64,000 nt of DNA from an uncultured Pseudomonadota bacterium (GTDB lineage Bacteria; Oederibacteriota; Muellerivitia; Muellerivitales; Muellerivitaceae), in contig CAVYRH010000003.1 of the NCBI GenBank assembly GCA_963770835.1, positions 64,001-128,000 on the forward strand, read 5' to 3'. Both the position numbers and the translations under genes were made by a program. The notes beneath the pieces were generated by a model, which was not told the DNA's origin, made no database searches, and saw only the letters and a program-made list of their open reading frames with translations. Every line of letters begins with the position of its first letter. Position 1 is the stretch's first letter. Shown here one piece after another: positions 16,556 to 46,866 of this stretch.

Positions 16556-16583
16556 TGTCCGCGACGGGGATCCGTCGTGGACA
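16556..16583 (+). repeat. 28-bp cassette site S1 TGTCCGCGACG-GGGATC-CGTCGTGGACA
   Basis: 11-6-11 palindrome. Confidence 0.92.
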
Positions 16584-16686
16584 GAGCGAAAGCATAAAAT
16601 GAATTTGGGCATCGAATGATCGAATGTTGTCCAATCTCTGAGACGCTCGCACTTCGGCGAGCGGATCGGGCAGGGGACAGCTGAGT

Positions 16687-17484
16687 GTGGAAAAAGGTTA
16701 TGATTTGAAAAAAATATTGAAAATATTCATCTTGGGGTGGATAGGGTTAAATCCAGCAAAAGGGATTGCCCTGAGCGCTCAAGAAGTCCCGGTTCTCCGT
16801 TCATTCGGAAATGCCATTACGTTAACAGGCTTGGTGTTAAAAGAGAATAATGATTGGATTTTCAAATTAGACAAACCGGCGCTTGTCCCATGGCCAAGTA
16901 TTTTTCGGCGGGCACAGAATGCCAAGTTGAGGATCGAACGGACGAATTTAAAGTCGGACGTGTATGAAATAAATGATAAATGGTTGAATCAACATTTAGC
17001 CTTCAAATGCCAATTAAGCATCGAGCGAACGGCTACCGCGGTATCGGGGGTGGTCTGTGATCTGAAGGAATTGGTTGGAGAATCTTCCTTAAAAAAGATG
17101 TTCGCGGGCCTGACCACATATCCATTTAATGAAACTATTACCCTATCGGGAGTTTTGTCCTCTAAAACATTTTCCTCTTGGCGTCCAACCAATGGCCCTG
17201 CTACCGCCGCCCACGAAGAAAAAGTGAGGGTTCTCTATCTCGACGAACCCATCAATGTGGCTGCGAAAGAACCCCATGGACCAGCTTATGGAGTAACAAA
17301 GGTTCAATTTGATTCATCGATCTATTTCCCGACGGATAGATTTATGGACAAACATGTTTGGGTATCCGGGAAGTTATCTACCGCCGATGAGTGGTCCCAA
17401 TTCTTGCCTGTTTTGCTCGATGTAAAAGATCAAAATGAAATTTCGTTAACGAAGAAGGCTAAAAATTGGTGGTGGCCTTTTTGA
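16687..17484 (+). CDS. cassette: exported hypothetical protein with duplicated OB-like domain
   Basis: Signal peptide; two ITL(T/S)G...L.LD.P repeats; stop 2 bp before S2. Confidence 0.7.
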   Translation: MEKGYDLKKILKIFILGWIGLNPAKGIALSAQEVPVLRSFGNAITLTGLVLKENNDWIFKLDKPALVPWPSIFRRAQNAKLRIERTNLKSDVYEINDKWLNQHLAFKCQLSIERTATAVSGVVCDLKELVGESSLKKMFAGLTTYPFNETITLSGVLSSKTFSSWRPTNGPATAAHEEKVRVLYLDEPINVAAKEPHGPAYGVTKVQFDSSIYFPTDRFMDKHVWVSGKLSTADEWSQFLPVLLDVKDQNEISLTKKAKNWWWPF

Positions 17485-17486
17485 AT

Positions 17487-17514
17487 CGTCCGCGACGGGG
17501 GCCCGGATTGGACA
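17487..17514 (+). repeat. 28-bp site S2 CGTCCGCGACG-GGGGCC-CGGATTGGACA
   Basis: Degenerate copy. Confidence 0.85.
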
Positions 17515-17560
17515 ATGAAAATTGCGCCGGAAATTGCCCAGTGGGGAAAGGTTGGTTTCA

Positions 17561-17845
17561 ATGACCTATAAGGTAATGGTCGATGATAATTACGACTATA
17601 TGGACCCTGAAAAACGGTATACCCATGGCGAGTTCGAGGCATTGGAAGCGGCCATCGAAGCTTGCAAGAGGATCGTCAACGAGTGGCTGGAGTCCAGTTA
17701 TAAGGCCGGAATGAGCGCCGAGGAACTTTGCAAAAGCTACAAGGGTTTTGGATTGGACCCATGGGTTTTGGGTGCCGAAAAAAAAGTCTTTTCCGCGTGG
17801 GAATATGCCGAACAGCGTTGCGCTGAGATCTGCTCAAAAGGATGA
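17561..17845 (+). CDS. cassette: small hypothetical protein
   Basis: Single ORF between S2 and S3. Confidence 0.7.
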   Translation: MTYKVMVDDNYDYMDPEKRYTHGEFEALEAAIEACKRIVNEWLESSYKAGMSAEELCKSYKGFGLDPWVLGAEKKVFSAWEYAEQRCAEICSKG

Positions 17846-17892
17846 CTCCAAGAAGTGCCTGCCTCAAACAAAACATTTTGTTATGGATGGAT

Positions 17893-17920
17893 TGTCCACG
17901 ACGGGGACCCATCGTGGACA
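17893..17920 (+). repeat. 28-bp site S3 TGTCCACGACG-GGGACC-CATCGTGGACA
   Basis: Consensus copy; IS110 begins at next base. Confidence 0.95.
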
Positions 17921-17994
17921 GGTAACATGATGGCCATTCCACCGCCGGGATTAAACTATTCCCGGTGAGTAGCCACTCATAAGGAGGAATGACC

Positions 17995-19065
17995 ATGAAA
18001 CAGATTAGCAAAAAAGGATTCCAAGGCAAGGAGGTATCCAAGCGGGACGCCGTGTTTGTGGGGCTCGATGTCCACAAACGAAGTATTTACGTAGCAATCA
18101 GGATCAATGGAAAGGAAACCGGAACCAAGTCTGTGCCCGCGGATTGGGAAGCTGTGGTGAAGGTTCTGGAGCCTTACCGAAAAGGGTTAAAAAAGGTCGT
18201 CTACGAGGCAGGACCTACTGGCTTTGGCTTGGCACGTCGCCTTCGGGAAGTGGGATACCCATTGGACGTCATCGCCCCGAACAAAACACCTCGTGTAGCT
18301 CAGTTGGAAACAAAATCCGACCGGTTGGACTGCCGCAAGCTGGCGGAGTACGCCGAAAAGGATCTCTTGCGGGCTGTGGCGATCCCAACCCTCCAGGAAG
18401 AAGCGGATCGGCAAGTGGTGCGTTTGAGAAACGCGATGGTGGAACAAAAACGCAAGGCCAAACAAAGGATCAAAAGCTTTTTCCTCCAATATGGATTCAA
18501 GGAACCTAGAGGGCTGGATTACTGGACCCACGAGGCCATCGGAGTTTTGCGGGATATGGAACTGCCGCCGGCCCTGAGATTCACGTTGGATAGCCTATTG
18601 GAAGATCTCTTTTACTTTGATAGGCAGCTTAAAGACGTGAACATACGTTTGCGGGTCATGATGAAGGACAAGGCCTACGAGAAAAAGGCTAAGATCCTCA
18701 GGTCCCACCCGGGAGTGGGTGAAGTAACGACCCTGCAAATGTTAACGGAGATTTACCAGCCGGAGCGCTTTCAAAACGCCAAACAGGTGGCGGCTTACGT
18801 GGGGTTGGCCCCAAGGATCAGGCAAAGCGGAGAAACTCGAAAGGAAGGCCATTTGCAGAAGGCCGGAAAAGGAACCTTGAGGGCTACCTTAGTTGAAGCT
18901 GCCTGGTCATGGATTCAAAAGGATACCCAGGCCAACCGCGTTTTCCGCCGGTTCGTCCGTAATACGGGGCATGTCAACAAAGCGATTGTGGCAATGGCTC
19001 ACAAGCTTTTGATTCACCTTTGGACTATGTTGGTTCGAAAGGAAGTTTATCGGCCCATGCTCTAA
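17995..19065 (+). CDS. IS110 DEDD recombinase/transposase
   Basis: VGLDVHK, YEAG, KSDRLD, GLAP..RQSG motifs. Confidence 0.95.
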   Translation: MKQISKKGFQGKEVSKRDAVFVGLDVHKRSIYVAIRINGKETGTKSVPADWEAVVKVLEPYRKGLKKVVYEAGPTGFGLARRLREVGYPLDVIAPNKTPRVAQLETKSDRLDCRKLAEYAEKDLLRAVAIPTLQEEADRQVVRLRNAMVEQKRKAKQRIKSFFLQYGFKEPRGLDYWTHEAIGVLRDMELPPALRFTLDSLLEDLFYFDRQLKDVNIRLRVMMKDKAYEKKAKILRSHPGVGEVTTLQMLTEIYQPERFQNAKQVAAYVGLAPRIRQSGETRKEGHLQKAGKGTLRATLVEAAWSWIQKDTQANRVFRRFVRNTGHVNKAIVAMAHKLLIHLWTMLVRKEVYRPML

Positions 19066-19069
19066 AGAG

Positions 19070-19235
19070 GTTTCAGCCTCAGTTTCGTGATTCGACCCCT
19101 TAGGAATGACCACGAGTTTTAGCTGTGCCTTAGGCACGTTGGACAGGTGGTGGCTTCCCTCAGGATTATCGAATTCTTATCTTGTGCCTCGAGCACGAAT
19201 AGCAGCGTGAATCCACGAAACCAAAAGGCTGACCG
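19070..19235 (+). ncRNA. putative bridge/seek RNA of the IS1111 element
   Basis: Two parallel loops with GTGCC..GCAC hairpins followed by TTGGACAG (target-like) and ATAGCAG (IS-end-like). Confidence 0.65.
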
Positions 19236-19312
19236 TAGGAGAAAATTGGACTTGAGGAATGGCCTCATAGCAGGAATGGCCTCATAGCAGCTATATTTGA
19301 TTGGAAGACTCA

Positions 19313-19885
19313 ATGGACAAATTGATTGTAAGAAACATTAACTCTATTGCGGAATTGAAGCGTGCTTGGTCATTGAGCAAAAGATACGCTGGCAATCAAC
19401 AGAGTTTTAGCGAATACAAAGCTGAATTCAAAAAATATCCTGAATTGTTCATTGGATGTTTTAACGGCGGGAAATTAATAGGCGAGGCAAGCGGGAGTCC
19501 CTTTGGGAAATCCCATGTCGGCCTTTACAGCATTTTGGTGGAAGAGGGATACCAAAAAGAAGGGCTTGGCCTAAAGCTCATTCGATTTTTCGAGAAAAAA
19601 GCCGTTAAATATAAATCGCGAGTAACGGTTGCTTCAGGCAAAAAAACGGATGGATTCTATTTGAAGGCGAAATATAGGCCCTTTGAAATTCTCTTTCAGG
19701 TTAGGAATCAAAACCTGCCTGATAACTATTCCGAGTTGGCGGTTATAAGCCACGAACGCAATGTTGGAAAAGACAAATTCTTGTACATTAAAGTAAAAAA
19801 ATATATCCCTCTACTCAGGGATTCTCTTGAAAAGAAATTCCACGCACATGGCGCAAATTTTATTTTTGAACGTGTTTTGAAATGA
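19313..19885 (+). CDS. cassette: GNAT family N-acetyltransferase
   Basis: V.EGYQKEGLGLKL acetyl-CoA motif; FYLK. Confidence 0.85.
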   Translation: MDKLIVRNINSIAELKRAWSLSKRYAGNQQSFSEYKAEFKKYPELFIGCFNGGKLIGEASGSPFGKSHVGLYSILVEEGYQKEGLGLKLIRFFEKKAVKYKSRVTVASGKKTDGFYLKAKYRPFEILFQVRNQNLPDNYSELAVISHERNVGKDKFLYIKVKKYIPLLRDSLEKKFHAHGANFIFERVLK

Positions 19886-19903
19886 CTGATTTTGGTTGAA
19901 GTC

Positions 19904-19931
19904 TGTCCACGACGGGGACCCATCGTGGACA
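19904..19931 (+). repeat. 28-bp site S4
   Basis: TGTCCACGACG-GGGACC-CATCGTGGACA. Confidence 0.95.
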
Positions 19932-19981
19932 CGAAAGAAGCTCTGGTTTTTTTATCAAATGAATTTGGAAATGGTGTTGAA

Positions 19982-20581
19982 ATGAAAGTTGAAACCGAAA
20001 ATCTTGATGAATATCTTGTGTCGGACGAGGTCATCGACTGGCATCACCCGGACATCCAACGGATGGCTAAGGGACTGGTCGGGAATTGTCCCGATCAACT
20101 ATCCAAAATACGAGTGCTCTTTGAATGGGTGAGGGATGAGATCCCCCATACCAAAGACATTGATGAAAGGGTTGTGACATGCAAAGCGAGTGATGTCCTT
20201 CGGCACAGGACCGGGATGTGTTACGCCAAAAGTCATTTACTTGCCGCTCTATTAAGGGCGAATGGTATTCCCGCAGGATTTTGTTACCAGGTACTCGTTC
20301 GTGACGAGCCTTATACCGGGTTGGTATTGCATGGTTTGAATGGGGTCTATCTTGAGGACGTAAAAAGATGGGTCAGGGTGGATTCCAGGGGGAATGTTGG
20401 GAACATCAACGCCCAGTTCGATCCAAACAAAGAACGACTGGCATTTCAAATGGACCCGGCTTTGGGCGAGTTCATCTATGACACCATTTTTAAGGCACCG
20501 GTTCCTGAGGTGACGGAGACATTAAGAAAGTTCACTGACTTGCAGGAGATGTGGCCGCATTTACCAAAAAAACTGGGATAA
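19982..20581 (+). CDS. cassette: transglutaminase-like protein
   Basis: GMCYAKSHLLAALLRA, LHGLN, WVRVD catalytic triad; stop 2 bp before S5. Confidence 0.9.
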   Translation: MKVETENLDEYLVSDEVIDWHHPDIQRMAKGLVGNCPDQLSKIRVLFEWVRDEIPHTKDIDERVVTCKASDVLRHRTGMCYAKSHLLAALLRANGIPAGFCYQVLVRDEPYTGLVLHGLNGVYLEDVKRWVRVDSRGNVGNINAQFDPNKERLAFQMDPALGEFIYDTIFKAPVPEVTETLRKFTDLQEMWPHLPKKLG

Positions 20582-20583
20582 CC

Positions 20584-20611
20584 TGTCCACGACGGGGCCC
20601 ATCGTGGACAT
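20584..20611 (+). repeat. 28-bp site S5
   Basis: TGTCCACGACG-GGGCCC-CATCGTGGACA. Confidence 0.95.
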
Positions 20612-21410
20612 CGTGCCAGAGGAGGGTTTGCAGAGCCAGCAGGTGAGGGAGTAGGCCGATGAGGGTCAACCCAAGTCCTGACCAGGTAATCACCAGAGAG
20701 CCTGGAAGTCAGCCCCCGGCGTAGGATCGAGAGGTCCTGCCCGAAACGGGGTCATAAACCTCATTTAGTGAGGGAACAATCCAGCAGTCCGCAACATCAA
20801 GTGAATCCTGCCGCTTCGTGAATGGGACACCGAAAGGTGCAAGGGGATGCCGAGCCGCGTGTCTACTGGCGAAGGCCACGATCCCGCTGAAGAATCTGGT
20901 AGCAAGCGGGGCAAGTCCTCCGGAGTATGGGGAACGGAATGTTGGAAAGGCTATGCAAGCAAGCTGGGAGATCCTACCCGCCAAAAGACTTGCCGCTATA
21001 AGGCTAAAACCGAAAAGAGGCAAGGGTGGGAGGAAGTCGGAGGGGGTCACAGTACCGATGAAGGGGTGGACAACAAAACCACCCTGAGGGAAGGACCCCT
21101 GCTTCAACCATGTGTCTCAAAGAAGGTAGGCGCTGGAGCATGCCCCAAAAGGGCCAACAACTCTGTAGTACCAAAGCGCGAGGCCTTTGACAACAGGCAC
21201 TATGCCGAGCGGCCAAGGGGGAAGTCGAACCTGTAAAGCCGCCGGAGGAGAGGTTGTCGGAAAGCCGTATGATCGAAAAGGTCACGTACGGTTTGACGAG
21301 GGGGCGCTGGAAACGAAGTGATGAGGGAACCTCGTTGGGGCACGGAACCGGAAACGGGGAAACAGATCAAGGAACCCTCTGCACACCATCGCGCCAGTGC
21401 TCTACTCTGC
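20612..21410 (+). ncRNA. ORF-less group II intron
   Basis: Domain V AAGCCGTATGATCGAAAAGGTCACGTACGGTTT (~21262-21295); domain VI GCGCTGG..CCAGTGCTCTACTC; EBS1-like loop at 20860-20866; no RT ORF. Confidence 0.8.
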
Positions 21411-21444
21411 AAGAAGAACGTAAATTATCTGGAGGGTTGAAAAT

Positions 21445-22005
21445 ATGGAACATGTTCAAACAAAAACAGAATTGCCTATAACTTATCGGCCATCGATTAT
21501 TTATTCGGTCCCTTTTATTTATTTTTTTATCCGATATGGGTTGCCTAGCTATTTAGGGCTTTTTTCACTTAAAGAACATTTCGTTTTAGCATTTTTTTTA
21601 TTTGTGCTTTTTGGTTTACCCACTACTTTTTTAATGTTTGTGATTTTTAATATAAAAATTAAAGCCGTAGAAGATGGCTTGATATATTCAAAAAAAATAA
21701 AAGTGCCATGGACGGAAATTACAAAAATTACAGCCAAATCCGGTTTATTGCCGAACATAAAGATTTATTACCAAACCATGAAACCTTATGTGCCAAAGGG
21801 GATGACAGGCATTTATTCGACAAAATCGATGGTTAATTTCCTGGAGCTTTTAACTATTAAATCTCCTCAAGCGGAATTTGGAGATGGAATCATAGAGTTC
21901 GAAGAAAAATATAAAACATATATTTCTGAATCTTTACGACAAGCCATCAATAACAAAATGACGAAAAAAGATTCAACTCAATTAGTTCAAGTCGAAAAGG
22001 TTTAG
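21445..22005 (+). CDS. cassette: membrane protein with bPH-like C-terminus
   Basis: Two TMs, then DGLIY..KVPWTEITKI. Confidence 0.7.
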   Translation: MEHVQTKTELPITYRPSIIYSVPFIYFFIRYGLPSYLGLFSLKEHFVLAFFLFVLFGLPTTFLMFVIFNIKIKAVEDGLIYSKKIKVPWTEITKITAKSGLLPNIKIYYQTMKPYVPKGMTGIYSTKSMVNFLELLTIKSPQAEFGDGIIEFEEKYKTYISESLRQAINNKMTKKDSTQLVQVEKV

Positions 22006-22013
22006 AGATGCGT

Positions 22014-22041
22014 TGTTCACGACGGGGACCCGGAGTGAACA
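22014..22041 (+). repeat. 28-bp site S6 TGTTCACGACG-GGGACC-CGGAGTGAACA
   Basis: Compensatory C>T / G>A change preserves the palindrome. Confidence 0.9.
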
Positions 22042-22083
22042 ACCAAAAGGACCGTTTTGCGAGTTAAATATAAGGGGTGTCTT

Positions 22084-23241
22084 TTGAAGAATATTTATAA
22101 ATCTTTAATGATTTCAATTTTTATTCCATTGTTCTCATCGGTTTTGGCTCAACCAGTTTCGACACCCCTCTCTACTACAGAATCAGCTCCGATCATTCAA
22201 CCGACACTTGGTGATTTAAAGAGGGACAAACCGGACTTTCCATCGTTTTATGCCAAAAAGGATATAACGAATAAAAACGATCATAATATTTATTTGATTA
22301 CCAAAAAAGAGACACTAACGCAGCAAATCCCAAGGGGGGAAATCAGCATTGATCCAAATGGATGGTTGTTTGAGGAAAGGTGTGGAGAGGGTATAAACAA
22401 AGATTGTTCATCATTCGATGGAAAATGGACTTATTCTGCGGAAAGTGGCCTCTCCGGTTCATTCGCTGTGCGAAATACTTCATCAAAAACAGAGACGGAT
22501 ATCGACAATCCCTCGGACCCCTTTGGTTTGTTTCCTTTAGTGTGGAACCCTTCTAAGGATGTTCTCTATTTTCTTAGTGTTTTAGGTGACTCCACCCAAC
22601 ATACTTTAGTTCTTTTTCAGTTTGACCCTGAAAGTAAAATTTTCATCAAATTCCCTGAGGCGATGGATTTTCTAAAAGTTTTCAATTTAAGCCCTGATGG
22701 GAAATGGATCGTTTGGACCGAAAAAAGTATTCATGTTTATAACGTAGAAAAAAACATCGATTATCCATTGACGGAAGTACCCGATTATTTCCAATTTTAT
22801 AATTGGTGTTATGCCGATAACGAGGATACGAAAACAAGGATCGCTAAATTCATCAACGATGGAAAGCAGTTTTACTTAAAACACCAGTTCGCTGATGCTA
22901 TTCAGGAATATCAAAAAGCGATCGATCTAGATTCTTCGAATTCGCTTGCATATGGGTATATGGGTTATTCTGCTTTTCGCATGGGAGACTTTAAAGATTC
23001 CATTCGAGATCTGGAAAAATCTATTGAATTAGACAAATGGAATAAAATGTCTTATTACAATTTGGCTTTGGTCTATTGGGACAATCATCAAAAGGAACGT
23101 TCGATCGCCTGTTTAGGCTCTATTCCTTACAAAAATGCAAAGCCAAGTTCGGAGTATTTGGATAAAAAACCAATCCAGGATGATCCTCAATTCAAAGAAA
23201 TGTTAGATAGCCCTGAATTTATAAAAGCTTTTGGTCGTTAG
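22084..23241 (+). CDS. cassette: exported beta-propeller plus TPR protein
   Basis: Signal peptide, LSPDGKWI, C-terminal TPRs. Confidence 0.75.
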   Translation: MKNIYKSLMISIFIPLFSSVLAQPVSTPLSTTESAPIIQPTLGDLKRDKPDFPSFYAKKDITNKNDHNIYLITKKETLTQQIPRGEISIDPNGWLFEERCGEGINKDCSSFDGKWTYSAESGLSGSFAVRNTSSKTETDIDNPSDPFGLFPLVWNPSKDVLYFLSVLGDSTQHTLVLFQFDPESKIFIKFPEAMDFLKVFNLSPDGKWIVWTEKSIHVYNVEKNIDYPLTEVPDYFQFYNWCYADNEDTKTRIAKFINDGKQFYLKHQFADAIQEYQKAIDLDSSNSLAYGYMGYSAFRMGDFKDSIRDLEKSIELDKWNKMSYYNLALVYWDNHQKERSIACLGSIPYKNAKPSSEYLDKKPIQDDPQFKEMLDSPEFIKAFGR

Positions 23242-23258
23242 AGTTTTGATTGATTCTT

Positions 23259-23286
23259 TGTCCGCGACGGGGACCCTTCGTGGACA
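23259..23286 (+). repeat. 28-bp site S7 TGTCCGCGACG-GGGACC-CTTCGTGGACA
   Basis: Near-consensus. Confidence 0.93.
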
Positions 23287-23303
23287 GGTCAAAAGAGGGT
23301 AAA

Positions 23304-23487
23304 GTGACAGAACTCAAACCAAGTTGGCCGGAATATTCCGGTGGAAAGAAACTCGAACAAGACACCCTTCTGTCCTCCCCCACAGGCACCACTTTTATCG
23401 CCCCTCAAGGATGGCATGCCGCTTTCCAAAAGGATTCTTGGGTCCTGGAAGACCCGGAGCGGGAATTGATCATCGCCTTGGTGGAGA
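23304..23487 (+). pseudogene. cassette gene 5' fragment truncated by IS3
   Basis: GAGGG RBS plus GTG; reading frame runs into the IS3 IR. Confidence 0.55.
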
Positions 23488-24753
23488 TGACCGGCCCCCC
23501 AAGTTTGTGCCACCAATTAAGTCACTCCCGGAGTAGGAGTTCCTGAGGTCGTCATGGGCAAGGTGTTGCCTTTGGGCCCCATGACGACCGCCTCCGGGGC
23601 AGGCGGTTTATACCCCAGAGAGCTGTGCGGCCGTTTCGTATTGTACTCCTTCCTCCACCTCTCAGCGAGCACTCGGCCTTCCCACACCGTGTCGAGCAGT
23701 TCGCCGTTCAATAGTTCGTCCCTGAATTTGCCGTTGAAGCTTTCGTTATAGCCGTTCTCCCAAGGGCTTCCCGGTTCGATGAAAAGGGTCTTTACTCCCA
23801 CCTTCGGGAGCCAGTCCTTCACCCTCTCCGCTGTGAATTCAGGCCCATTGTCGGAGCGGATGTGCTCCGGCACTCCCCGTTGGACGAACAAGTCCGTCAG
23901 CACTGCCTGCACGTCGTCCGCCGTAAACTTCCGAGCTACCGGCAGGGCCAGGCATTCACGGGTGAACTCATCGATCAGCGTCAGGAACCGAAGAGGCCGT
24001 CCGTCGCTGGTCCTCTCGGCGACGAAGTCATAGCTCCAAACGTGGTTGGGGTGTTCCGCCCTCAACCTGACACAGGAACCATCCGTAAACCACAACCTCC
24101 TTCGTTTCGGCTGTTTTTTCGGTACTTTCAACCCTTCCTGCTTCCAAATCCTTTCCACCCGCTTCTTGTTGACCCTCCAGCCCTCCTCCTGAAGCATCTT
24201 GGTAATCCGCTTATACCCATACCGCCCGTACTGGCAGGCCAGCCGGAGAATGGCGGTCGTCAGGAGGTCCTCATCGGGCAGGATCTGAGGGATATATCGC
24301 TGGGTGCTCCGGGGTTGGCCGAGGGCCCGGCATACGCGCCGCTGGGAGGCTCGGTGGGTTTCACACGCTTCCCGAACCGCTTTTCGGCGCTTTTCCGGGC
24401 TTAGGAGTTTCCCCGGGCCAAGTCTTTCAGGATGCGGTTATCCAGGGAGAGGTCGGCCACCACCCGCTTGAGCTGGGTATTCTCTTTCTCCAATTCCTTT
24501 AGGCGTTTGGCCTGGTCCAGCTTGAGACCGCCGTATTCTTTTCGCCAGCGGTAGTAGGTATGTGGGGTTATTTGAAGCTCACGGCAGACTTCTTCAACAG
24601 CACGGCCTTTGGACTGCTCAACCTCGGCCTGGCGCAACATGGAAATGATCTGCTCGGCGTTGTGTTTCTTCCTTGGCATAAATGCCCCCTTTTCTTGGCC
24701 CATTATAGAAAAGTATGACTTTTCAACTGGACCAGGTTGAGGGGGGCGGGTCA
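23488..24753 (-). mobile_element. complete IS3-family (IS407-group-like) element, orfA 24401-24679 and orfB to 23517
   Basis: TG..CA ends with imperfect IRs; HTH orfA; WSYDF, SDNGPEF, ESFNG DDE motifs; unrelated flanks, no TSD. Confidence 0.95.
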
Positions 24754-25144
24754 GAGGAACCAAGCCTTTTACAACCACGCAACCGACAGCATTACCCTTC
24801 CTTTTAAAGAGGCTTTTAAATCCACCGAAGGATTTTACGAAACGGTTTGCCATGAGCTCATTCACTGGACGGGAGGCCCGGCCCGGCTCAACCGCATTTC
24901 CAAAGCGGCCTTTGGTTCCGAAGAATACGCCGCCGAGGAGCTTGTGGCCGAGTTTGGGGCTTCGATCCTTTGCGCTCATGTCGGAATCCCTTACAAAACC
25001 AACCACGCCGCTTATATCGCCTCATGGATTAAGAAGTTAAAAGACGATCCGAAGGCCCTTTCCACCGCCATCACCCAAGCCCAAAAGGCCGTTGATTTTC
25101 TTTTGAAACCCGCCGCAGACGAAATAATTAAGGAGGTAGCTTAA
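24754..25144 (+). pseudogene. ardC: ArdC-like antirestriction/ssDNA-binding protein C-terminal zincin domain, 5'-truncated
   Basis: AFY....D.I.LP, HELIHWTG...RLNR, YAAEELVAE.GA, HAAYIASW. Confidence 0.85.
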
Positions 25145-25146
25145 CC

Positions 25147-25584
25147 ATGAACAAAAGACACTTAAAAAAACTATTAAAGGTGGCCGACGGGGTTTACCCC
25201 GACGGCCTTATTGAAAGACTACTCAAAGGAGAGGAGGAGGTAGGGGACGGCCTGGCCAAATTCATTTTTAACGAAATGACCGAAACCGCCGAAGGGAAGA
25301 CACCCTGGGAAATTACCGAAAGCGTAATCAAAGCCTTGGAAACGGGCGCTAAGGAACTGGACTGCGTAATCCGGGCTTTGCGCCAGGTCAATACCAAAGG
25401 CCCCAAGAGGGTTGGGCCCAGGAAAAGGCTTAAGGAATTTACCGTTACTTGGGTTCGCAAGGGAATGAAAACCTACAAAGCCACCAGTGAGGAGGCCGCC
25501 GAACAGCAATTTTCCGACGATCCAAACGCGCCAGATGAAGAACAGACAACCGATGTTTACACGCAGGAAGGGGGGATTTTATGA
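25147..25584 (+). CDS. hypothetical MGE protein
   Basis: AAGGAGG RBS; operonic with ardC. Confidence 0.7.
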   Translation: MNKRHLKKLLKVADGVYPDGLIERLLKGEEEVGDGLAKFIFNEMTETAEGKTPWEITESVIKALETGAKELDCVIRALRQVNTKGPKRVGPRKRLKEFTVTWVRKGMKTYKATSEEAAEQQFSDDPNAPDEEQTTDVYTQEGGIL

Positions 25585-38028: not shown

Positions 38029-38199
38029 TAAAGTTATGGTTCCCAATAGGAGATAGCCTGGAAAGCCGGTTGAGTGCGGAATTCCACCGGTATATAAGGC
38101 GGATAAAAGATCCCCGCAATCACCAAAGTAAACGGTTGGTGCGGCATGGACGAGGAAAAAAAGAAATACAAGAAGGAAGAATAAAGAAGAAAAGCGCAA
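38029..38199 (-). pseudogene. DUF2723-like membrane glycosyltransferase N-terminal fragment truncated at R8
   Basis: APTVYFGDCGDLLSALYTGGIPHSTGFPGYLLLG motif. Confidence 0.65.
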
Positions 38200-38587
38200 A
38201 CTCGGCTCCGATTTAAGTGAATAAAAACAACAGCTTCTTCATTTTAACAGCTTCATTATGTAGGCGTGTTCCTTGGTTTGGAGGGGTAATAAAATACAAA
38301 AGCGGTTAGGCGTTTAAACCTGACCGCTTTTAAGTGTGAAAAGTTTTGTAATTAGTTAGAAGAACCCGGAGTTTCGCCGAGAAGGTTAGAATTTTTGTCC
38401 AGCGATTGGTTGAGTTGGCTGATCTGGTCGGGTGTCAGTGAATGGCTCTTGTTCTGTTTGAAAAAAGTAAATTCCTGTAAACGGATATTCCTCAAGCTGG
38501 CCCTAACGCTTTGGGCTTGTTCCTTGGAGAATTTTCCGGATTTTACCCCCGTCTGGGTTAATTTCATTTGCGTTTTGACCCGTTGGT

Positions 38588-39117
38588 TTTTTGTTCCACC
38601 ATCGCGTTTCTCAAACGCACCACTTGCCGATCCGCTTCTTCCTGGAGGGTTGGGATCGCCACAGCCCGCAAGAGATCCTTTTCGGCGTACTCCGCCAGCT
38701 TGCGGCAGTCCAACCGGTCGGATTTTGTTTCCAACTGAGCTACACGAGGTGTTTTGTTCGGGGCGATGACGTCCAATGGGTATCCCACTTCCCGAAGGCG
38801 ACGTGCCAAGCCAAAGCCAGTAGGTCCTGCCTCGTAGACGACCTTTTTTAACCCTTTTCGGTAAGGCTCCAGAACCTTCACCACAGCTTCCCAATCCGCG
38901 GGCACAGACTTGGTTCCGGTTTCCTTTCCATTGATCCTGATTGCTACGTAAATACTTCGTTTGTGGACATCGAGCCCCACAAACACGGCGTCCCGCTTGG
39001 ATACCTCCTTGCCTTGGAATCCTTTTTTGCTAATCTGTTTCATGGTCATTCCTCCTTATGAGTGGCTACTCACCGGGAATAGTTTAATCCCGGCGGTGGA
39101 ATGGCCATCATGTTACC
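38588..39117 (-). mobile_element. truncated second copy of the IS1111-type element
   Basis: Reverse complement of ~17921-18450; left end abuts S8. Confidence 0.93.
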
Positions 39118-39145
39118 TGTCCACGACGGGGACCCGTCGTGGACA
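39118..39145 (+). repeat. 28-bp site S8 TGTCCACGACG-GGGACC-CGTCGTGGACA
   Basis: Perfect 11-bp arms. Confidence 0.95.
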
Positions 39146-39768: not shown

Positions 39769-39796
39769 TGTCCACGACGGGGACCCATCGTGGACA
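39769..39796 (+). repeat. 28-bp site S9
   Basis: Consensus copy. Confidence 0.95.
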
Positions 39797-40033: not shown

Positions 40034-40393
40034 ATGCGTTATTTGATAAGCATTGTTTTGTTAATTGCAACGACCGGGTGCGGCACCCTATTTAATAGAA
40101 ATCTAAAACCCGTAATGTTGGATTCTGATCCTCAAGGTGCCGATGTCTATGTAGATGGTAATCGTGTCGGTAAAACCCCAATAAATGTCGAGATGGAAAA
40201 AAAGCATTCTGCAAATTTAACTTTTAAAAAAGAAGGGTATGAAGAAAAAACTGCAATAATTCAATCTCAATTAGTGCCAGGTTTATTGATTCTTGATCTC
40301 TTTGGATTAGTTCCTTTAGTGGTTGATGCTGCAACGTCAAATTGGAATGATCTTGATAAAGGAAATCTCAAAGTTTTGCTGGACAAAAAATAG
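40034..40393 (+). CDS. cassette: PEGA-domain lipoprotein
   Basis: Lipobox TTGC; SDPQGADVYVDG..GKTP; KKEGYE. Confidence 0.85.
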   Translation: MRYLISIVLLIATTGCGTLFNRNLKPVMLDSDPQGADVYVDGNRVGKTPINVEMEKKHSANLTFKKEGYEEKTAIIQSQLVPGLLILDLFGLVPLVVDAATSNWNDLDKGNLKVLLDKK

Positions 40394-40533: not shown

Positions 40534-40561
40534 TGTCCACGACAGGGACCCGCCGTGGACA
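40534..40561 (+). repeat. 28-bp site S10 TGTCCACGACA-GGGACC-CGCCGTGGACA
   Basis: Near-consensus. Confidence 0.93.
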
Positions 40562-40676
40562 AAGCAAAATGGATTAGGGTGGCCTGAACCCGATTTTTAA
40601 TAACGATAAGGTAACTTTGCCGGCTGTGTAAGCCGAGTAGATAAATAAAGTTGATAGAATTCAATTGAGGCTGGAA

Positions 40677-41993
40677 ATGGAATCCCCACAGACAAACGCG
40701 CATCCGAAAGCACTCCTGTTTTCGGTCAGGACGCCCAAGGTGACTGATACCGAAGCGATGGAATCAATGATCGAGCTCGAACGGCTGGTGACGACCTTGG
40801 GTTACGAGGTGACCGGAACTATGTCCCAGCGGCAACCCAGCACAAAAGGGGTCACTGTGGTGGGTGAGGGAAAACTGATGGAACTCGCCCAACTCACCGG
40901 TGGAAAGGGCTACCGGGATAGGGTTAAGGGGAACTCCGAAGCGCCAAAACAGGCGCAAGTCCCGGCCTCGACTCCCGATGGACCCGCGATGGTTGTTTTT
41001 GACTGTGATTTGAGCCCGTCCCAGATTCGTAACGTCGAAGAGGCTTTGGGGGTTCCGGTGCTCGATCGAACCGGGGTGATTATCGAAATCTTCAACCGCC
41101 ACGCGAAGACCCGGGCGGCGCGGCTCCAGGTCGATATCGCGCGCCAAACCTATCAGGCTCCCCGTCTCAGGGATATGGGGGTGGGCAAGGAACGCCAGTC
41201 CGGCCGAGGATCCGGGGAAACCGTCATCGAGACGGAAAAGCGCAAAGTCCGCGACCGCCTGGCTGAGCTGAGGCACGAGTTACAAGCGGTTCAAAGGGAA
41301 GAGGAGCAACGCCGGATGAAACGCGCGGAACTGCTCGGCGCCGTGCTCGTGGGCTACACGAATGCCGGAAAATCATCCCTCATGCGGGCGCTGACCGGCA
41401 GCGACGTCCTGGTGGAGGACAAGCTCTTCGCGACCCTGGATACGACGATACGCGCCCTACAACCAGAGACCCAGCCGAGAATCCTGATCACCGATACGGT
41501 GGGTTTTATCCACAAGCTTCCGCACGACCTGGTGGCGTCCTTCCGCTCCACGCTGGATGAGGCCCGCGGCGCCGCCCTGCTTCTTTACGTGGTGGATGCC
41601 GCTGATCGCAACTTTCGTTCCCAGCTCGCGGTGGTTCGGGAAGTTTTGGGTGATATTGGCGCCGACAAAACGCCATATCTTCTCATTCTCAATAAGGCCG
41701 ACTGCTTGAGCGAATGGCAGAAGCAGGTTCTCAGGGCGGAGTATCCGGACGCGGTTTTAACCTCGACCCGCAGTCCCGAGGACATGCGGGGCGTTAGTGA
41801 ACGCATTATTCATTTTTTCGAGAAAGACATGATTGAAAAGGAGATTCTCGTTCCCTATAAAGCCCAAGGCGTCATCAGCGAAATGCGTTTGAATATGAAA
41901 ATCTTGAGGGAGAGTTTTGTTGAAGAAGGCGTTCTGCTTCTTGTTCGCGCCCGTCCGATTGACCTTCAGCGCTTGAGTAAAATGATGAAATAG
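40677..41993 (+). CDS. hflX: cassette: ribosome-splitting GTPase HflX
   Basis: LSPSQIRN, DRTGVI.EIF..HA, GYTNAGKS, LFATLDTT, DTVGF, NKAD. Confidence 0.95.
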   Translation: MESPQTNAHPKALLFSVRTPKVTDTEAMESMIELERLVTTLGYEVTGTMSQRQPSTKGVTVVGEGKLMELAQLTGGKGYRDRVKGNSEAPKQAQVPASTPDGPAMVVFDCDLSPSQIRNVEEALGVPVLDRTGVIIEIFNRHAKTRAARLQVDIARQTYQAPRLRDMGVGKERQSGRGSGETVIETEKRKVRDRLAELRHELQAVQREEEQRRMKRAELLGAVLVGYTNAGKSSLMRALTGSDVLVEDKLFATLDTTIRALQPETQPRILITDTVGFIHKLPHDLVASFRSTLDEARGAALLLYVVDAADRNFRSQLAVVREVLGDIGADKTPYLLILNKADCLSEWQKQVLRAEYPDAVLTSTRSPEDMRGVSERIIHFFEKDMIEKEILVPYKAQGVISEMRLNMKILRESFVEEGVLLLVRARPIDLQRLSKMMK

Positions 41994-42054
41994 TGCCCTG
42001 CGGTGTGTCCCGGACGGGCCCGCAAGCTCGGCCGATAAGAAATTGTCCACGACG

Positions 42055-43995
42055 GTGCGTCCAGAAAAGGCAGGTGTGTTCAGCAAGAGATAGTCTTGCA
42101 TGGGTAATAGCCAAAGCCCATTAGCTAGGATGGCAGGCAAGCGGGAAACCAAATGCCTGAAGCCCATCAACAAAGCCATCGAAAGGATGGTGAGCGAGTC
42201 GTCGGGCCGTAACGAAAGTAAATGCACAGGTGGCCCCGAAAACACTTGCCTCGGAGGCTGAGTCCGCCGTCGTGGGACGAAAGCATCATGGGACAGCGCG
42301 GAGAAATGGCTGAAGCGCTGGAACACTCCGACGGGGTGATAGCAACGGCACGAAGACAAGGACACGCCAAGCAACTGGAGAAACCCTCCTTGCCCCAGGC
42401 AGAAATGCTTGGAGAAAGGTAGGCCGTATAACCGTGACGCGGGAAAACGGTCGAAGGTGAGAGGGTTTAGGATGGGTTCATGGTAGCGATGAAGCGGGGT
42501 AATGCCCGTGGAGCGAAGGAACCCTGCTGTTGTTAAGTCCCTCGACAAAACGGAAGGCAGTGACGGTATGAAAAAGACGTCAATTAACCTGCAAGACCTG
42601 AGACGAGAGATATACGTCAAAGCGAAGGCTGAAAAGAACTGGAGTTTCTGGGGACTGTACACCCATGTTTGCAAGATGGAAACGCTTCAACAGGCTTACC
42701 GAATGGCTAAGGTAAATAACGGAGCCCCTGGAATAGATGGGGTGACGTTTGATGCCATTGAGGAGGCCGGAGTGGAGTCGTTTCTGGAAAGCATCCGGGG
42801 TGAATTAGTTCAAGGCACGTATAAGCCCGTTCGAAACCGGAAGAAGGAAATACCCAAGGGAAATGGGAAGGTAAGAGTCCTTGGGATACCCAACATTCGG
42901 GATAGAGTAGTCCAGGGAGCACTGAAGTTTATTCTGGAACCGATTTTTGAGGCCGATTTTCAAGAAGGGTCCTATGGGTATCGACCCAAGCGGACCGCTC
43001 ATGCGGCTGTGAACAGGGTAGCATCGGCAATCGTCTGTAGAAAAACCCGAGTCATTGATGTAGACCTCAAGGCATATTTCGACACGGTAAGGCACGACCT
43101 TCTGATGAAGAAAGTTGCCCGAAGGGTTGAGGATGAAACGGTGTTGAGATTGTTGAGGATGATCCTGAAGGCCAGCGGCAAAAGAGGAGTCCCGCAGGGA
43201 GGGGTTATTTCCCCTCTTCTGGCTAATCTCTACCTCAACGAGGTGGATAAGATGCTGGAAAAGGCAAAAGAAGTGACTCGGCAAGGGAAGAACAACTATA
43301 TCGAATATGCGAGGTTCGCTGACGATATGGTGATCCTTGTTAATGGATATCCGCAATGGGAATGGTTGGCAAAGGCTGCCTACCGAAGGTTACTTGAAGA
43401 ATTGACCAAGCTCGACTTGCAAATCAACACGGACAAGACGCGGATAGCAGACTTAACGAAAGGTGAAAGTTTCGGGTTTCTGGGGTTTGACTTTCGACAG
43501 GTGAAAACCCGTCGAGGGAAATGGGGGGTGAAGTTCACGCCGAAAATGAAGGCGCGAGCAACACTTCTGGGTAAGCTCAAGGAAACATTTGGAAGCTTCC
43601 AATCTCAGCCGGTGCAGAGGGTGATTGAGATTATCAATCCCAAACTGCGTGGGTGGGTGAATTACTTTCGGATAGGGAATTCTAGGCGCTGTTTTAACTA
43701 CGTGGAAAGATGGGTCGAGAATAAAATCAGACGGCATATGATGCGTGCGAAGAAGCTCGACGGTTTTGGGCGGGATAGGTGGAGTAGGGAGTGGATATAT
43801 AAGTATCTGGGGTTGTACAGAAGCTACCAAATACGATATTACCAAGAACCGAAAGCGCTACCCGTCTGATAGGTCACATAAACTTTGACAGGAAAGCAAC
43901 AGGTGAGCGTAGTGCGGGAAATCCGCACGCTACGTTCGAGGAGGCGGGGACTGGAAACGGAGCCAGAAGGCCACCGCACCAGTCCTCGACCCTAC
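42055..43995 (+). mobile_element. group II intron with RT/maturase
   Basis: 5' GTGCG, 3' CCCTAC, domain V GAGCGTAGTGCGGGAAATCCGCACGCTACGTTC (~43905-43937). Confidence 0.95.
42568..43869 (+). CDS. ltrA: group II intron reverse transcriptase/maturase without endonuclease domain
   Basis: APGIDG, R.LGIP..RDRVVQ, GVPQGGVISPLLAN.YL, RFADD, LRGWVNYF. Confidence 0.95.
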   Translation: MKKTSINLQDLRREIYVKAKAEKNWSFWGLYTHVCKMETLQQAYRMAKVNNGAPGIDGVTFDAIEEAGVESFLESIRGELVQGTYKPVRNRKKEIPKGNGKVRVLGIPNIRDRVVQGALKFILEPIFEADFQEGSYGYRPKRTAHAAVNRVASAIVCRKTRVIDVDLKAYFDTVRHDLLMKKVARRVEDETVLRLLRMILKASGKRGVPQGGVISPLLANLYLNEVDKMLEKAKEVTRQGKNNYIEYARFADDMVILVNGYPQWEWLAKAAYRRLLEELTKLDLQINTDKTRIADLTKGESFGFLGFDFRQVKTRRGKWGVKFTPKMKARATLLGKLKETFGSFQSQPVQRVIEIINPKLRGWVNYFRIGNSRRCFNYVERWVENKIRRHMMRAKKLDGFGRDRWSREWIYKYLGLYRSYQIRYYQEPKALPV

Positions 43996-44053
43996 GGGAC
44001 CTGTCGTGGACAAAAAAATAAGGCGGAAGATACTATTCAAGTGGAGGAAGGGA

Positions 44054-46234
44054 ATGATGATGATCGGATTCAGATTACTCATGGATATGGCAAAGGGACA
44101 CCGGTATTGGATGTCCGCGGCGGCCCTTTTCGGCCTCGTGCCGCCCTTAGGGGCCGCGACCTACTATGTCTCCCCTTCCGGGAATGATGCCGGTCCCGGA
44201 AGCCAAACCCAACCCTTCGCCTCCCCGCAAACCGCCGTCACTCACCTGGCGCCCGGCGACACCCTGGTGTTCCGGCAAGGGACTTACTACGGTTCCATTA
44301 TTGTCCCCCAATCCGGATCAGCCGCATCCCCCATCACCCTGGAAGCCTATCCGGGTGAAACGCCGCTACTCGACGGCGCCGGTCCCGTCACCGGTGCTTG
44401 GAGCCATTACCAGAGTTCCATTTACCGCGCCCCTTGGGCTTCCCAGCCCGCCCAGGTTTTCTGTGACGGCCACCTTCTGAATGAAGCCCGCTGGCCCGCC
44501 GCCGAGGTGGAGGGCCTCAGCCACCAACCCGTGGCCCTCGCTGACTCGGGGTCGGCCAGCCAGGTCACCTGCGCCAATCTTCCCCGGGTGGACCTGACCG
44601 GCGCCCTCATCCAGCTCATGGCGGGCCAATCCTGGTGCTCCTATACCCGTACCATCGTTTCCCATGACCGGCCTAGGGGCTCCCTGGTTTTTGATTCCCC
44701 GGTGAGCGAAATGGCAGCCTTGGTGCCGCGCCGGGGAACCCGTTTCTACGTCTTCGGCAAACTCAACCTCTTAACCGCGCCGGGGGAGTGGTATTGGGAC
44801 CCGCAAAAAAAAGAACTTTACGCCTGGACCCCGGATGGCGCCCCGCCCCAAGGCCGCGTGGAGGCCGGGGACGCTTCCCCGGTCCTGTCCCTGGACGGAC
44901 AGTCTTATATCACGGTCAAGGGGCTGCAGGCCCGGGGCGGATGGTTTTCCCTTTCCAACAGTTCCCATTGCACCGTCCAGGATTGCCGCCTTATCGCCCC
45001 CAATTGGACGAGAATGATGAATGGTTACGTCACCAAACCCGCGACCCTGGGCGGCATCGACATTTCCGGCGCCGACAACCAATGCCTGGGCGGGTCGGTG
45101 GTCTTCGCGGGGCGCAGCGGCGTCGATCTTTCCGGCGGAAGCGGCCACCTGGTCAAGGGCATGAACGTGGAGGATTGCGGCTGGAACTGGGGCAATGACG
45201 GGGGCATCCACGTGATCCACGCCGACCAGTGCGTTGTCCAATCCTGTACCGTCCGGCGGGTGGCCCGGGTGGGCATCTTCGACTATTACTCCACCTCCTG
45301 CCGGTTCCTCAACAACCTAGTCGAGGACGTCTGCCTTTACAGCGACGACGTGGGCAATTTCGACTCTTGGGGCACGGACGGCAAGGGCAGTGAAATCGCC
45401 TACAACCTCATGCGCGGCAACCGCGGCATGTGGGGCGCGGGCATCTACCTGGACGACAACGCCAAGGGCTTCAATGTCCACGACAACGTGGTCGAGGATT
45501 GCGCCTGGTACGGCTTTAAATTCAGCGATGTGGATAGGCTCGAAAACAACACCGCGTTAGGTCCGGGCCACGGGGCCCTTTACTGCTCCCAGCCCGCGAG
45601 CAAGGACCTGACCGGCTCCAAGGTGGCCCATAACCGGTTCCGGGAAACCTTCCCGGTGCGGGTCAACTTCAACCAGGCCTCGGTCACCGATTATGGTTAC
45701 TACGGGGGCTACGCCTACCTGGGCGCCCCCGGCCGCGTGGAGGTGGATTGGGGCCAATTGGAACAGCCTTGGTGGGCGGTAAAGGTTCCGCTCGACTTAA
45801 CCCAGATCCCTACCATCGCCTTCAGCATTGAATGCCTGGCCGACTCCTTTACCTTCACGGTGGCCAATTTGCGGCTCCTGCCCAAGGGCCTAAAGGGGGA
45901 TGACGGCGCCGTGACCCTGGCGGGAAACTGGTTTTCCTACGCCGGGCAGGGCGCTACCTCCACCTTGAGCCTTTCGGGTCCGGCGACCTGGGGCGCGACC
46001 GGAAAAACCGTCGTGGGCGGCTGGAACTCCACCGGCCTTCCCCTCACCGGCAGCCAGAGGGACCTGACCGCCTACCGGGGACTCGCCTTTGAGATCGGCG
46101 GAACCGCCGTGATGAAATACAACCTGAATGGATGCGTCGACGAGGATAACGGCCCCGATCCCAAGCCGGGCCGGGGCGCCAGCCTGCCCATCACCGTGGG
46201 GGCCGAAGGGTTAAGGGTCGGGCCGGTCCCCTAA
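44054..46234 (+). CDS. cassette: secreted right-handed parallel beta-helix (carbohydrate-active-like) protein
   Basis: TYYVSPSGND..PG, PGDT..R.GTY, EARWP, GIYLDD motifs. Confidence 0.85.
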   Translation: MMMIGFRLLMDMAKGHRYWMSAAALFGLVPPLGAATYYVSPSGNDAGPGSQTQPFASPQTAVTHLAPGDTLVFRQGTYYGSIIVPQSGSAASPITLEAYPGETPLLDGAGPVTGAWSHYQSSIYRAPWASQPAQVFCDGHLLNEARWPAAEVEGLSHQPVALADSGSASQVTCANLPRVDLTGALIQLMAGQSWCSYTRTIVSHDRPRGSLVFDSPVSEMAALVPRRGTRFYVFGKLNLLTAPGEWYWDPQKKELYAWTPDGAPPQGRVEAGDASPVLSLDGQSYITVKGLQARGGWFSLSNSSHCTVQDCRLIAPNWTRMMNGYVTKPATLGGIDISGADNQCLGGSVVFAGRSGVDLSGGSGHLVKGMNVEDCGWNWGNDGGIHVIHADQCVVQSCTVRRVARVGIFDYYSTSCRFLNNLVEDVCLYSDDVGNFDSWGTDGKGSEIAYNLMRGNRGMWGAGIYLDDNAKGFNVHDNVVEDCAWYGFKFSDVDRLENNTALGPGHGALYCSQPASKDLTGSKVAHNRFRETFPVRVNFNQASVTDYGYYGGYAYLGAPGRVEVDWGQLEQPWWAVKVPLDLTQIPTIAFSIECLADSFTFTVANLRLLPKGLKGDDGAVTLAGNWFSYAGQGATSTLSLSGPATWGATGKTVVGGWNSTGLPLTGSQRDLTAYRGLAFEIGGTAVMKYNLNGCVDEDNGPDPKPGRGASLPITVGAEGLRVGPVP

Positions 46235-46337
46235 ACGGTTCTTTTCAAATAGCTGGCATATCCTCTTTCAATGAGCCCCCTCAATTCCAAGGGAGTTTGA
46301 GGAGAACTAGGGGGGAAGGCTGGCAGCCAATTTGGCT

Positions 46338-46365
46338 TGTCCACGACGGGGACCCGCATTGGACA
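46338..46365 (+). repeat. 28-bp site S12 TGTCCACGACG-GGGACC-CGCATTGGACA
   Basis: Degenerate right arm. Confidence 0.9.
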
Positions 46366-46415
46366 AAGAAAAAGGCTCAATAACACCACCCAATATGAAA
46401 GGGATTATTTTGTGA

Positions 46416-46820
46416 ATGAAGTATTTAAAAAAATATAAAAAATACCTCCTAAATTCGATGGAATTTCTTATGCCGTTAATAGAATTTGGCGATTTTATTA
46501 CAGCCGCCGACCAGGATGGTTTCGCTATCAGCGCTATCGAAGGAAGGGAAAAAGCCTTGTTTAGTAAAAAACATCATTTTCGATCTGACATGTATATTAT
46601 TTTTTTGCCTAAGAAAAAGAACCCAGGTTGGGAGAACTTCAAGAACCATTGCAATATAAATGCGGAGAGATGGTATTCGAAGATGATAAAGAAAAGATTT
46701 ATTTTGGGTAATCCCCTACCGATAAATGCAACAAAACGAATTTTAATTTGTTCGTGTTTAGTGGATAAAGCGCAATGGATGAAGGATTATCGAAAGAAAC
46801 GCATTAAGACAATAACTTGA
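46416..46820 (+). CDS. cassette: AT-rich hypothetical protein
   Basis: Single ORF between S12 and S13. Confidence 0.6.
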   Translation: MKYLKKYKKYLLNSMEFLMPLIEFGDFITAADQDGFAISAIEGREKALFSKKHHFRSDMYIIFLPKKKNPGWENFKNHCNINAERWYSKMIKKRFILGNPLPINATKRILICSCLVDKAQWMKDYRKKRIKTIT

Positions 46821-46838
46821 GAACTGATAGCGAACTGT

Positions 46839-46866
46839 TGTCCACGATGGGGAGCCGCCGTGGACA
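46839..46866 (+). repeat. 28-bp site S13 TGTCCACGATG-GGGAGC-CGCCGTGGACA (last site)
   Basis: Abuts the core envelope locus. Confidence 0.88.

Follow-up and report, generated by a model that had tools for sequence, protein, structure and literature searches.

Rows of gene cassettes separated by a 28-bp palindrome in an uncultured soil bacterium, with a short serine recombinase as their candidate enzyme

What kind of recombination system sets unrelated genes in a row, one after another and all facing the same way? The question is raised by a 64-kb stretch of DNA (64,000 nucleotides, hereafter the window) from the genome of an uncultured soil bacterium, labelled G000, in which copies of a 28-bp palindrome separate small swappable genes set in rows between positions 16556 and 46866 of the + strand. 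A sequence-only reading of the window had listed 13 sites, all of them correctly placed, and had proposed an integron-like cassette system with directly repeated sites other than attC, driven by a tyrosine recombinase encoded elsewhere. The cassette system and the direct repeats are borne out, the sites being clustered and co-oriented and the order of cassettes differing within and between genomes; the enzyme does appear to be encoded elsewhere, on contig C17, but the recombinase linked to the sites is of the serine type. We regard it as very likely that these arrays of mobile cassettes are real. That a short serine recombinase, P0001, is their enzyme appears probable, and we lean, with less assurance, towards an enzyme of this type that would both excise and insert single-gene cassettes, as a true analogue of the integron.

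The separating site and the exchange of cassettes

A scan for 11-bp inverted arms around six free bases (11-N6-11), allowing three or fewer mismatches, recovered 9 of the 13 window sites and nothing in 100 shuffles, the outliers being the degenerate, shortened or interrupted copies of Table 1. The geometry is nevertheless better described as 13-bp arms around a 2-bp centre, TGTCCACGACGGG-GA-CCCGTCGTGGACA, than as the 11-6-11 dif/lox arrangement of the sequence-only reading. Among 440 distinct sites from G000 and its relatives a weak 14th arm position is apparent (a pyrimidine before the 28-mer in 92%, a purine after it in 89%), and conservation is mostly 89-100% at positions 1-15 and 23-28, with position 10 at 79% and positions 19-22 variable. 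In a set of 408 sites collected with the centre left free, GA occupies positions 14-15 in 391 and C position 16 in 363, while positions 19-22 reach only 57-74% consensus. Arm positions 9-11 are conserved in both arms, and positions 4-7 are variable in the right arm.

The motif scan of the genome and its relatives, which the sequence-only reading had recommended, placed the window array among about 20 clusters that together hold 88 intact sites in G000 (counted by a 25-kb gap rule over 26 contigs, whose ends may divide what are single clusters). Of the 88, 73 have another site within 3 kb, against a random mean of 9.3 and a maximum of 27 in 1000 draws, and all 58 neighbouring pairs at 10 kb or less share one orientation, two sites without a GA core having been set aside. 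A co-oriented open reading frame (ORF) of at least 80 amino acids (aa) stops 60 bp or less before the site at 62 of the 88, compared to 11 on the opposite strand and 8.6 at random. Intervals of up to 2.6 kb in G000 have a median length of 931 bp and a GC content of 46%, against 54% for the genome; among 77 intervals of up to 3 kb in G000 and G004, the latter from another genus, 53 contain one co-oriented ORF and 12 contain two. Of the 92 cassette ORFs scanned out of 101, 43 had no Pfam match, and 11 intervals carry toxin-antitoxin families. The cargo also includes cas1, which starts 45 bp after a site at three places in G000 (L233:16146-17186, C3:47167 and C16:35972) and has homologues adjoining sites in G004 and G014. 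Repetitive extragenic palindromic (REP) sequences and bacterial interspersed mosaic elements, which are dispersed in mixed orientation between conserved genes, were rejected as an explanation: the sites are clustered, their neighbouring pairs are all co-oriented and the order of the cassettes is variable, which is the reverse of the scattered, randomly oriented sites amid conserved gene order that the sequence-only reading had set against its own proposal.

Of 24 genomes of the same family, 21 gave the full site, as did the single genome of the same order; 15 other members of the phylum gave none. Among the matches listed in an all-species scan (at least 80 records) most belong to candidate division FCPU426, and a search of viral contigs gave no match. 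In a half-site search of 99 genomes of the phylum, counts of about three or fewer are at chance level and were not used as evidence of presence. The same search gave 12 one-mismatch half-sites in G028, from a more distant family, which has three copies of a one-base left-arm variant (C51:700 and C51:1957, 1.3 kb apart, and C87:6343), possibly a related class of site. A derivation of the site from a tRNA end was considered and is unsupported (best match among 54 tRNAs, 4 mismatches in 15); the arrays occupy many loci, mostly distant from tRNAs. A crude scan for -10 promoter elements in 385 site flanks gave no clear peak.

Cassette order, whose comparison between strains had been advised, differs both within G000 and between genomes. 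An 863-bp cassette occurs four times in G000, identical from site to site with differing neighbours, and a pair of cassettes of 963 and 766 bp occurs twice. The HflX cassette of the window is present from site to site in G004 with 92% DNA identity and other neighbours, and has homologues in three further genomes. G004 also has the final 557 bp of the PEGA cassette, the adjoining site included, at 99.6% identity, followed by a different neighbour. The O-antigen ligase flanking the array shares only 39% protein identity with its G004 counterpart, and no site was found at the end of this gene in G004 or G020. Contigs from four sequencing runs over window positions 15000-25500 covered mainly copies of insertion sequences (IS) and introns, the cassettes only thinly, contained no site joint and are uninformative on circles.

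Comparison of junctions shows that cassettes are exchanged as units, with the crossover placed by the aligned sequences within site positions 12-15. Pairs with a common upstream flank agree in variants at positions 8, 10 and 11 (one case each) and mostly disagree over positions 16-28; where the downstream flank is the common one, variants at 18-25 are often shared, and variants at 16-25 go with that flank. Junctions with an intact left arm only retain G14 in 11 of 12, A15 in 11 of 12 and C16 in 3 of 12, and a relaxed set of such one-armed junctions gives 36, 33 and 14 of 40 respectively, so that likeness to the consensus stops after position 15, not at 11|12 or 17|18. A tyrosine enzyme would break at either of the latter two positions, and serine recombinases give a break directly after the central dinucleotide; the break after the central GA thus points to serine-type exchange. 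A central crossover also implies that every site derives one half from each neighbouring cassette.

The alternative that a tyrosine recombinase, Xer-like or other, acts on 11-6-11 sites draws on the pdif (XerC/D) modules of Acinetobacter, in which 28-bp sites bound gene-sized mobile modules, often toxin-antitoxin. The symmetric 28-mer is compatible with that geometry, 343 of 408 sites have the spacer GGGACC, and the insertion point of one group II intron is exactly 11|12. All five genomes examined also possess an Xer-like gene, whose action would account for arrays where the serine enzyme is lacking. Against this, a separate dif-like 11-6-11 site directly precedes the Xer gene in all five and matches the array site at only 6 of 22 arm positions, and the single Xer of G000 was rejected as the array enzyme on account of this unrelated site. 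Moreover, pdif sites alternate in orientation, whereas the array sites are all direct repeats, and the spacer joined to one cassette is GGGACC in one genome and GGGAGG in another, a difference lying beyond 15|16, where likeness stops. We consider a tyrosine enzyme very unlikely.

G000 has 12 PF00589 genes, none of which is IntI; the IntI model TIGR02249, with which G000 alone was searched, gave at best 44.6 bits against a cut-off of 265. Integrases of the PNVHGLP type were likewise rejected, as they end next to tRNA genes: of the six in G000, five are followed immediately by a tRNA gene or a tRNA-end-like sequence, the sixth being cut by a contig end. On C26 one of this type is found some 0.8 kb past a site, and another is inside a cluster of G006; a three-gene PF00589 cluster on C10 and genes on C2 and C7 are not beside sites. 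The search for a site-linked tyrosine recombinase suggested by the sequence-only reading accordingly returned an Xer with its own dif-like site and, among the others examined, integrases of tRNA islands. The six tRNA-targeting integrases of G000 (C1, C2, two on C5, C10 and C26) share a conserved N-terminus and are multi-copy across the family. The dif-like palindrome of G000 is at C11:156013-156040 (L002), with a second similar site at about C12:15228-15255 (L019) near tRNA-Ala; these genomes possibly possess a single-Xer system with a linked dif.

A second alternative holds that the palindrome works as a single-stranded hairpin, attC- or REP-like, for IntI or an HUH-type enzyme, or that it was passively spread by introns or IS110 elements. 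The consensus can indeed form a perfect hairpin, G000 has two weak Y1_Tnp genes of 320 aa, and group II introns and an IS110 target the site, as the available texts report for integron arrays (PMC7923331, PMC11187229). Apart from the lack of an IntI above cut-off in G000, covariation analysis showed compensatory changes to be no more frequent than expected; of 39 double changes at pair 10/19, 21 are complementary, close to the number that column frequencies predict by a hand estimate. An attC site belongs almost wholly to one cassette, whereas the arms of the present sites come from different cassettes. Both Y1_Tnp genes are distant from sites, and most sites have neither intron nor IS. We regard this alternative, in its hairpin and its passive form, as highly improbable.

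A short serine recombinase beside the sites

The serine-type crossover directs attention to P0001, a 275-aa serine recombinase encoded at C17:12078-12905, on a contig other than that of the window, and the sole gene in G000 matching PF00239 or PF07508. Its clade comprises 19 protein clusters, all of 275-283 aa with 68-100% identity, which combine a catalytic domain with YxRVS and DRLxR motifs (S18 of P0001 presumably being the nucleophile) and a recombinase domain (PF00239 and PF07508, without PF13408). All 19 end before the zinc-binding cysteines and so lack both zinc ribbon and coiled coil. The next relatives, many with a zinc ribbon, are separated by a gap at 59% identity or less, and P0001 is 55% identical to full-length relatives from the same bacterial family. 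In a quick tree of the first 330 residues, made without bootstrap, the 19 clusters form one branch among full-length serine integrases with a Shimodaira-Hasegawa-like approximate likelihood ratio (SH-aLRT) support of 100. The predicted structure (predicted local distance difference test score, pLDDT, 78) finds its best fold matches in serine integrase structures. Two 289-aa serine recombinases on a separate branch, P0031 and P0058, also end after the recombinase domain, which suggests that such truncation may have arisen more than once, independently.

Clustering of 1835 ORFs from 144 site-bearing regions singled out the short recombinase: of the 60 clusters listed it alone keeps one position and one orientation. 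The clustered copies are antisense, with the gene end 9-35 bp after a site, in five genomes. In a protein and Pfam search every one of the 11 copies with DNA past the gene end (one each in G000, G004, G020, G021, G024, G046 and L276, and four in G043) has a site 8-36 bp further, that of G020 being split by an intron with a reverse transcriptase (RT) gene. None of 30 full-length relatives has an adjacent site (best, 8 mismatches of 21). Seven loci with a recombinase remnant and a site were found via the site, hence are not independent, and were excluded from the 11. The gene lies convergent to the array, at its downstream end. The enzyme-adjacent site is distinct, and in one subgroup an extra 15-bp palindrome lies between gene and site. 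This palindrome (GTCAGTA-N-TACTGAC, overlapping the stop codon at L232:12906-12919) is possibly an accessory site; a similar one opens some toxin-antitoxin cassettes.

The surroundings of the gene bear on a further alternative, in which an integrative element encoding its own serine recombinase uses the sites for attachment and the arrays are stacks of the type of staphylococcal cassette chromosomes (SCC), left by repeated integration and deletion, rather than a dedicated means of single-gene capture. In G000 the recombinase forms, with ardC, a toxin-antitoxin pair and radC, a 7-kb unit between two sites; ardC also lies beyond the recombinase in G020 and G043 and radC in G020, and G043 has a TraG/VirB4-type ATPase gene there, whereas G004 has no such backbone. 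5'-truncated recombinase copies terminate several arrays, and the parent family of serine integrases integrates at tRNA ends, both as this alternative would have it. The units are, however, gene-sized, with stop codons 2-60 bp before the site in the counts given above, and 65 of the 77 short intervals contain a single co-oriented gene or a co-oriented pair. Identical cassettes reappear among other neighbours, the arrays stand at many loci mostly away from tRNAs, and the stretches examined of G004, G020, G024 and G043 gave no site that would close the unit on the far side of the backbone. We therefore judge an SCC-like origin unlikely.

P0001 as the array enzyme can be compared with LI integrase. 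According to the available text of the structural work (PMC3783163), LI integrase covers 13 bp of DNA with its recombinase domain, which makes base contacts at half-site positions 9-11; its linker touches position 14 and its zinc domain reads positions 16-24. From this contact map an arm of 13-14 bp is expected for a protein without the zinc domain, which matches the arms found here. Based on these observations we propose that P0001 was derived from a large serine recombinase by loss of the part comprising zinc ribbon and coiled coil. At each site a dimer would sit with its recombinase domains on the 13-bp arms, cleave around the central GA and exchange strands by subunit rotation. Parallel alignment would be imposed by the asymmetry of the GA core, so that direct repeats would be excised as circles with one rebuilt site, each cassette taking the form [right arm]-gene(s)-[left arm + GA], and circles could re-enter at any other site. 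With no distinction between attP and attB and no directionality factor, each junction would stay reusable. The position of the gene next to an ardC/radC-type backbone suggests that the platform probably travels on an integrative element; it would often decay, leaving enzyme-less arrays such as that of the window, which could be served in trans.

Several observations weigh against this proposal. A recombinase copy, whether whole, broken or at a contig edge, is present in just 7 of 31 genomes of the family, and five site-rich genomes (89-99% complete) gave no PF00239 match. A 3' recombinase remnant lies beside a site in two of these five (G002 and G023) and none in the other three; G014 likewise has a 3' remnant beside a site, G003 has one without a clear site, and no remnant was found in G041, G012, G018 and G044. 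Such enzyme-less arrays resemble the clusters of attC sites lacking integron-integrases (CALINs), yet leave room for another enzyme. Just one cassette pair is informative at positions 16-17, position 16 shows an excess of G (21 of 40 one-armed junctions), and the duplicated cassettes of G000 could be partly attributable to mixed strains (bin contamination 3.65%). Furthermore, deletion of the coiled coil from LI integrase yields promiscuous excision of any pair of sites and no intermolecular integration, and an engineered zinc-domain deletion binds about 25-fold more weakly, as given in the available text (PMC3783163), implying that insertion needs something extra. Our guess is that compensating changes on the long stem branch of the P0001 clade, or the extra 15-bp palindrome, may aid insertion.

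The array in the window

Eleven of the 12 intervals of the window array (Table 1) contain one + strand cargo gene once IS110, the 800-nt intron derivative and the RT intron are removed. The single-gene description of the sequence-only reading holds for these, and fails for the 15.9-kb interval 23259-39118, which contains an IS3-like element, an ardC fragment, pieces of Rhs genes, a poly-T run and a partial IS110. The same reading had the stop codon often 2-20 bp before the next site; the distance is 20 bp or less at 6 of the 11 measurable sites and 28-140 bp at the rest (2, 47, 18, 2, 8, 17, 28, 140, 50, 103 and 18 bp). The ardC fragment is probably a remnant of a recombinase-bearing backbone.

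Table 1. Sites, cassette genes and inserted elements of the window array, in window coordinates
Feature	Position	Strand	Remarks
Site, first found in array, core GA	16556..16583	+	28 bp
Cassette gene, 265 aa	16687..17484	+	No Pfam match
Degenerate site, core GG	17487..17514	+	5 arm mismatches; predicted not to recombine with GA sites
Cassette gene, up to 107 aa	17522..17845	+	No Pfam match
28-bp site	17893..17920	+	11-N6-11 scan
IS110-family element	17921..19290	+	Transposase 17989-19065; abuts outer end of site 17893
Cassette gene, GNAT acetyltransferase	19301..19885	+	
28-bp site	19904..19931	+	
Cassette gene, transglutaminase-like	19982..20581	+	ORF call from 19892; ATG at 19982 is the presumed start
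27-bp site without central A	20584..20610	+	Predicted inactive
Group II intron derivative, 800 nt, without RT gene	20611..21410	+	At right end of site 20584
Cassette gene, 186 aa	21445..22005	+	No Pfam match
28-bp site	22014..22041	+	4 arm mismatches
Cassette gene, TPR protein	22057..23241	+	
28-bp site	23259..23286	+	
IS with rve integrase core (IS3-like)	23488..24754	-	Truncates cassette beginning at 23287; ends approximate
ardC 3' fragment	24755..25144	+	52% identical to ardC next to recombinase, contig C17
Partial IS110 copy, inverse orientation	38588..39117	-	Abuts left end of site 39118
28-bp site	39118..39145	+	Perfect consensus
Cassette gene, 174 aa	39216..39740	+	No Pfam match
28-bp site	39769..39796	+	
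Cassette gene, PEGA domain	40034..40393	+	
28-bp site	40534..40561	+	A at position 11, a variant moving with upstream cassette
Cassette gene, HflX-type GTPase	40665..41993	+	
Split site, left 11 bp	42044..42054	+	Interrupted by 1941-nt intron, resumes at 43996
Group II intron with RT/maturase	42055..43995	+	RT/maturase 42502-43869; inserted at site position 11|12
Split site, right 17 bp	43996..44012	+	
Cassette gene, beta-helix protein	44006..46234	+	Real start probably further in
28-bp site	46338..46365	+	
Cassette gene, 134 aa	46416..46820	+	No Pfam match
Last site	46839..46866	+	26 bp from stop of convergent O-antigen ligase gene

The site is itself parasitised by mobile elements. In G000, 10 of 12 copies of the RT group II intron lie in a site, at position 11|12, 16 of 18 copies of the 800-nt intron family follow a site, at its right end, and 4 of 5 IS110 copies abut a site at either outer end; Rfam searches matched group II intron domains only. 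The 800-nt derivative of the window starts with TCGTGCC, ends with CTCTGC before an A, and has many identical copies as well as longer RT-bearing relatives. Elsewhere in the window, about 1 kb of poly-T/poly-A within Rhs-like genes (about 33300-34370) is probably an assembly artefact. Repeats of 41-57 bp at junctions of broken genes (329-372, 2884-2928, 5139-5194, 11237-11293, 13780-13825, 25962-26007 and 37984-38029) are perhaps the ends of another mobile element.

Comparison with known systems

Like integrons and CALINs, the arrays consist of tandem co-oriented cassettes of one or two genes in changing order, with sites targeted by group II introns and IS110-family elements. They further share a cargo of toxin-antitoxin pairs, acetyltransferases and unknown genes and the occurrence of arrays without an enzyme, CALINs arising by integrase loss or action in trans according to the available text of PMC8618304. 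They differ in the lack of an IntI above cut-off in G000, in a fixed 28-bp sequence in place of the folded attC with its R and L boxes and structure-conserved hairpin, and in a crossover that is central rather than at the attC 3' end. The candidate enzyme is a serine recombinase, its gene is convergent at the downstream end, and no Pc-like promoter was found in the flank scan.

With the large serine integrases (LI/A118, SPbeta, Bxb1, phiC31 and tRNA-targeting relatives) the short enzyme shares catalytic and recombinase domains and a central dinucleotide core, and the arms correspond to the 13-bp domain footprint of LI integrase (PMC3783163, available text). It lacks the zinc ribbon and coiled coil, the module that gives those enzymes directionality, and would serve dozens of sites per genome, of one symmetric class of 28-30 bp reused at internal junctions, where large serine integrases have an attP and an attB of 40-50 bp. 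The SCC and SCCmec elements (CcrAB, CcrC) likewise have a serine recombinase, stacked units and units without ccr, as far as the available text of PMC12648241 describes them. SCC units, however, are multi-gene islands at one locus (rlmH) with a full-length Ccr, whereas here there are gene-sized units, about 20 clusters and a 275-aa enzyme. The resemblance to Acinetobacter pdif modules lies in 28-bp sites around gene-sized mobile modules; the present sites differ in being unrelated to the host dif-like site, in being all direct repeats and in the evidence for a serine-type crossover. The open-access PubMed Central (PMC) and bioRxiv literature, with subscription papers and supplements lying outside the search, yielded no description of such a system.

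We favour, though with reserve, the interpretation that these arrays are an integron-like system built from different parts, a serine-recombinase integron representing a second, convergent route to gene capture. Integrons are the textbook collectors and shufflers of single genes, and search tools recognise them from IntI and attC; arrays having neither would probably be missed by such tools. If the proposal is true, a natural 275-aa enzyme on a 28-bp symmetric site would directly test the need for zinc ribbon and coiled coil, and would be informative because engineered deletions bind weakly or fail to integrate; a compact engineering tool would then be possible. The cargo that the arrays move from one genus to another comprises toxin-antitoxin pairs, cas1, transporters and many unknown genes.

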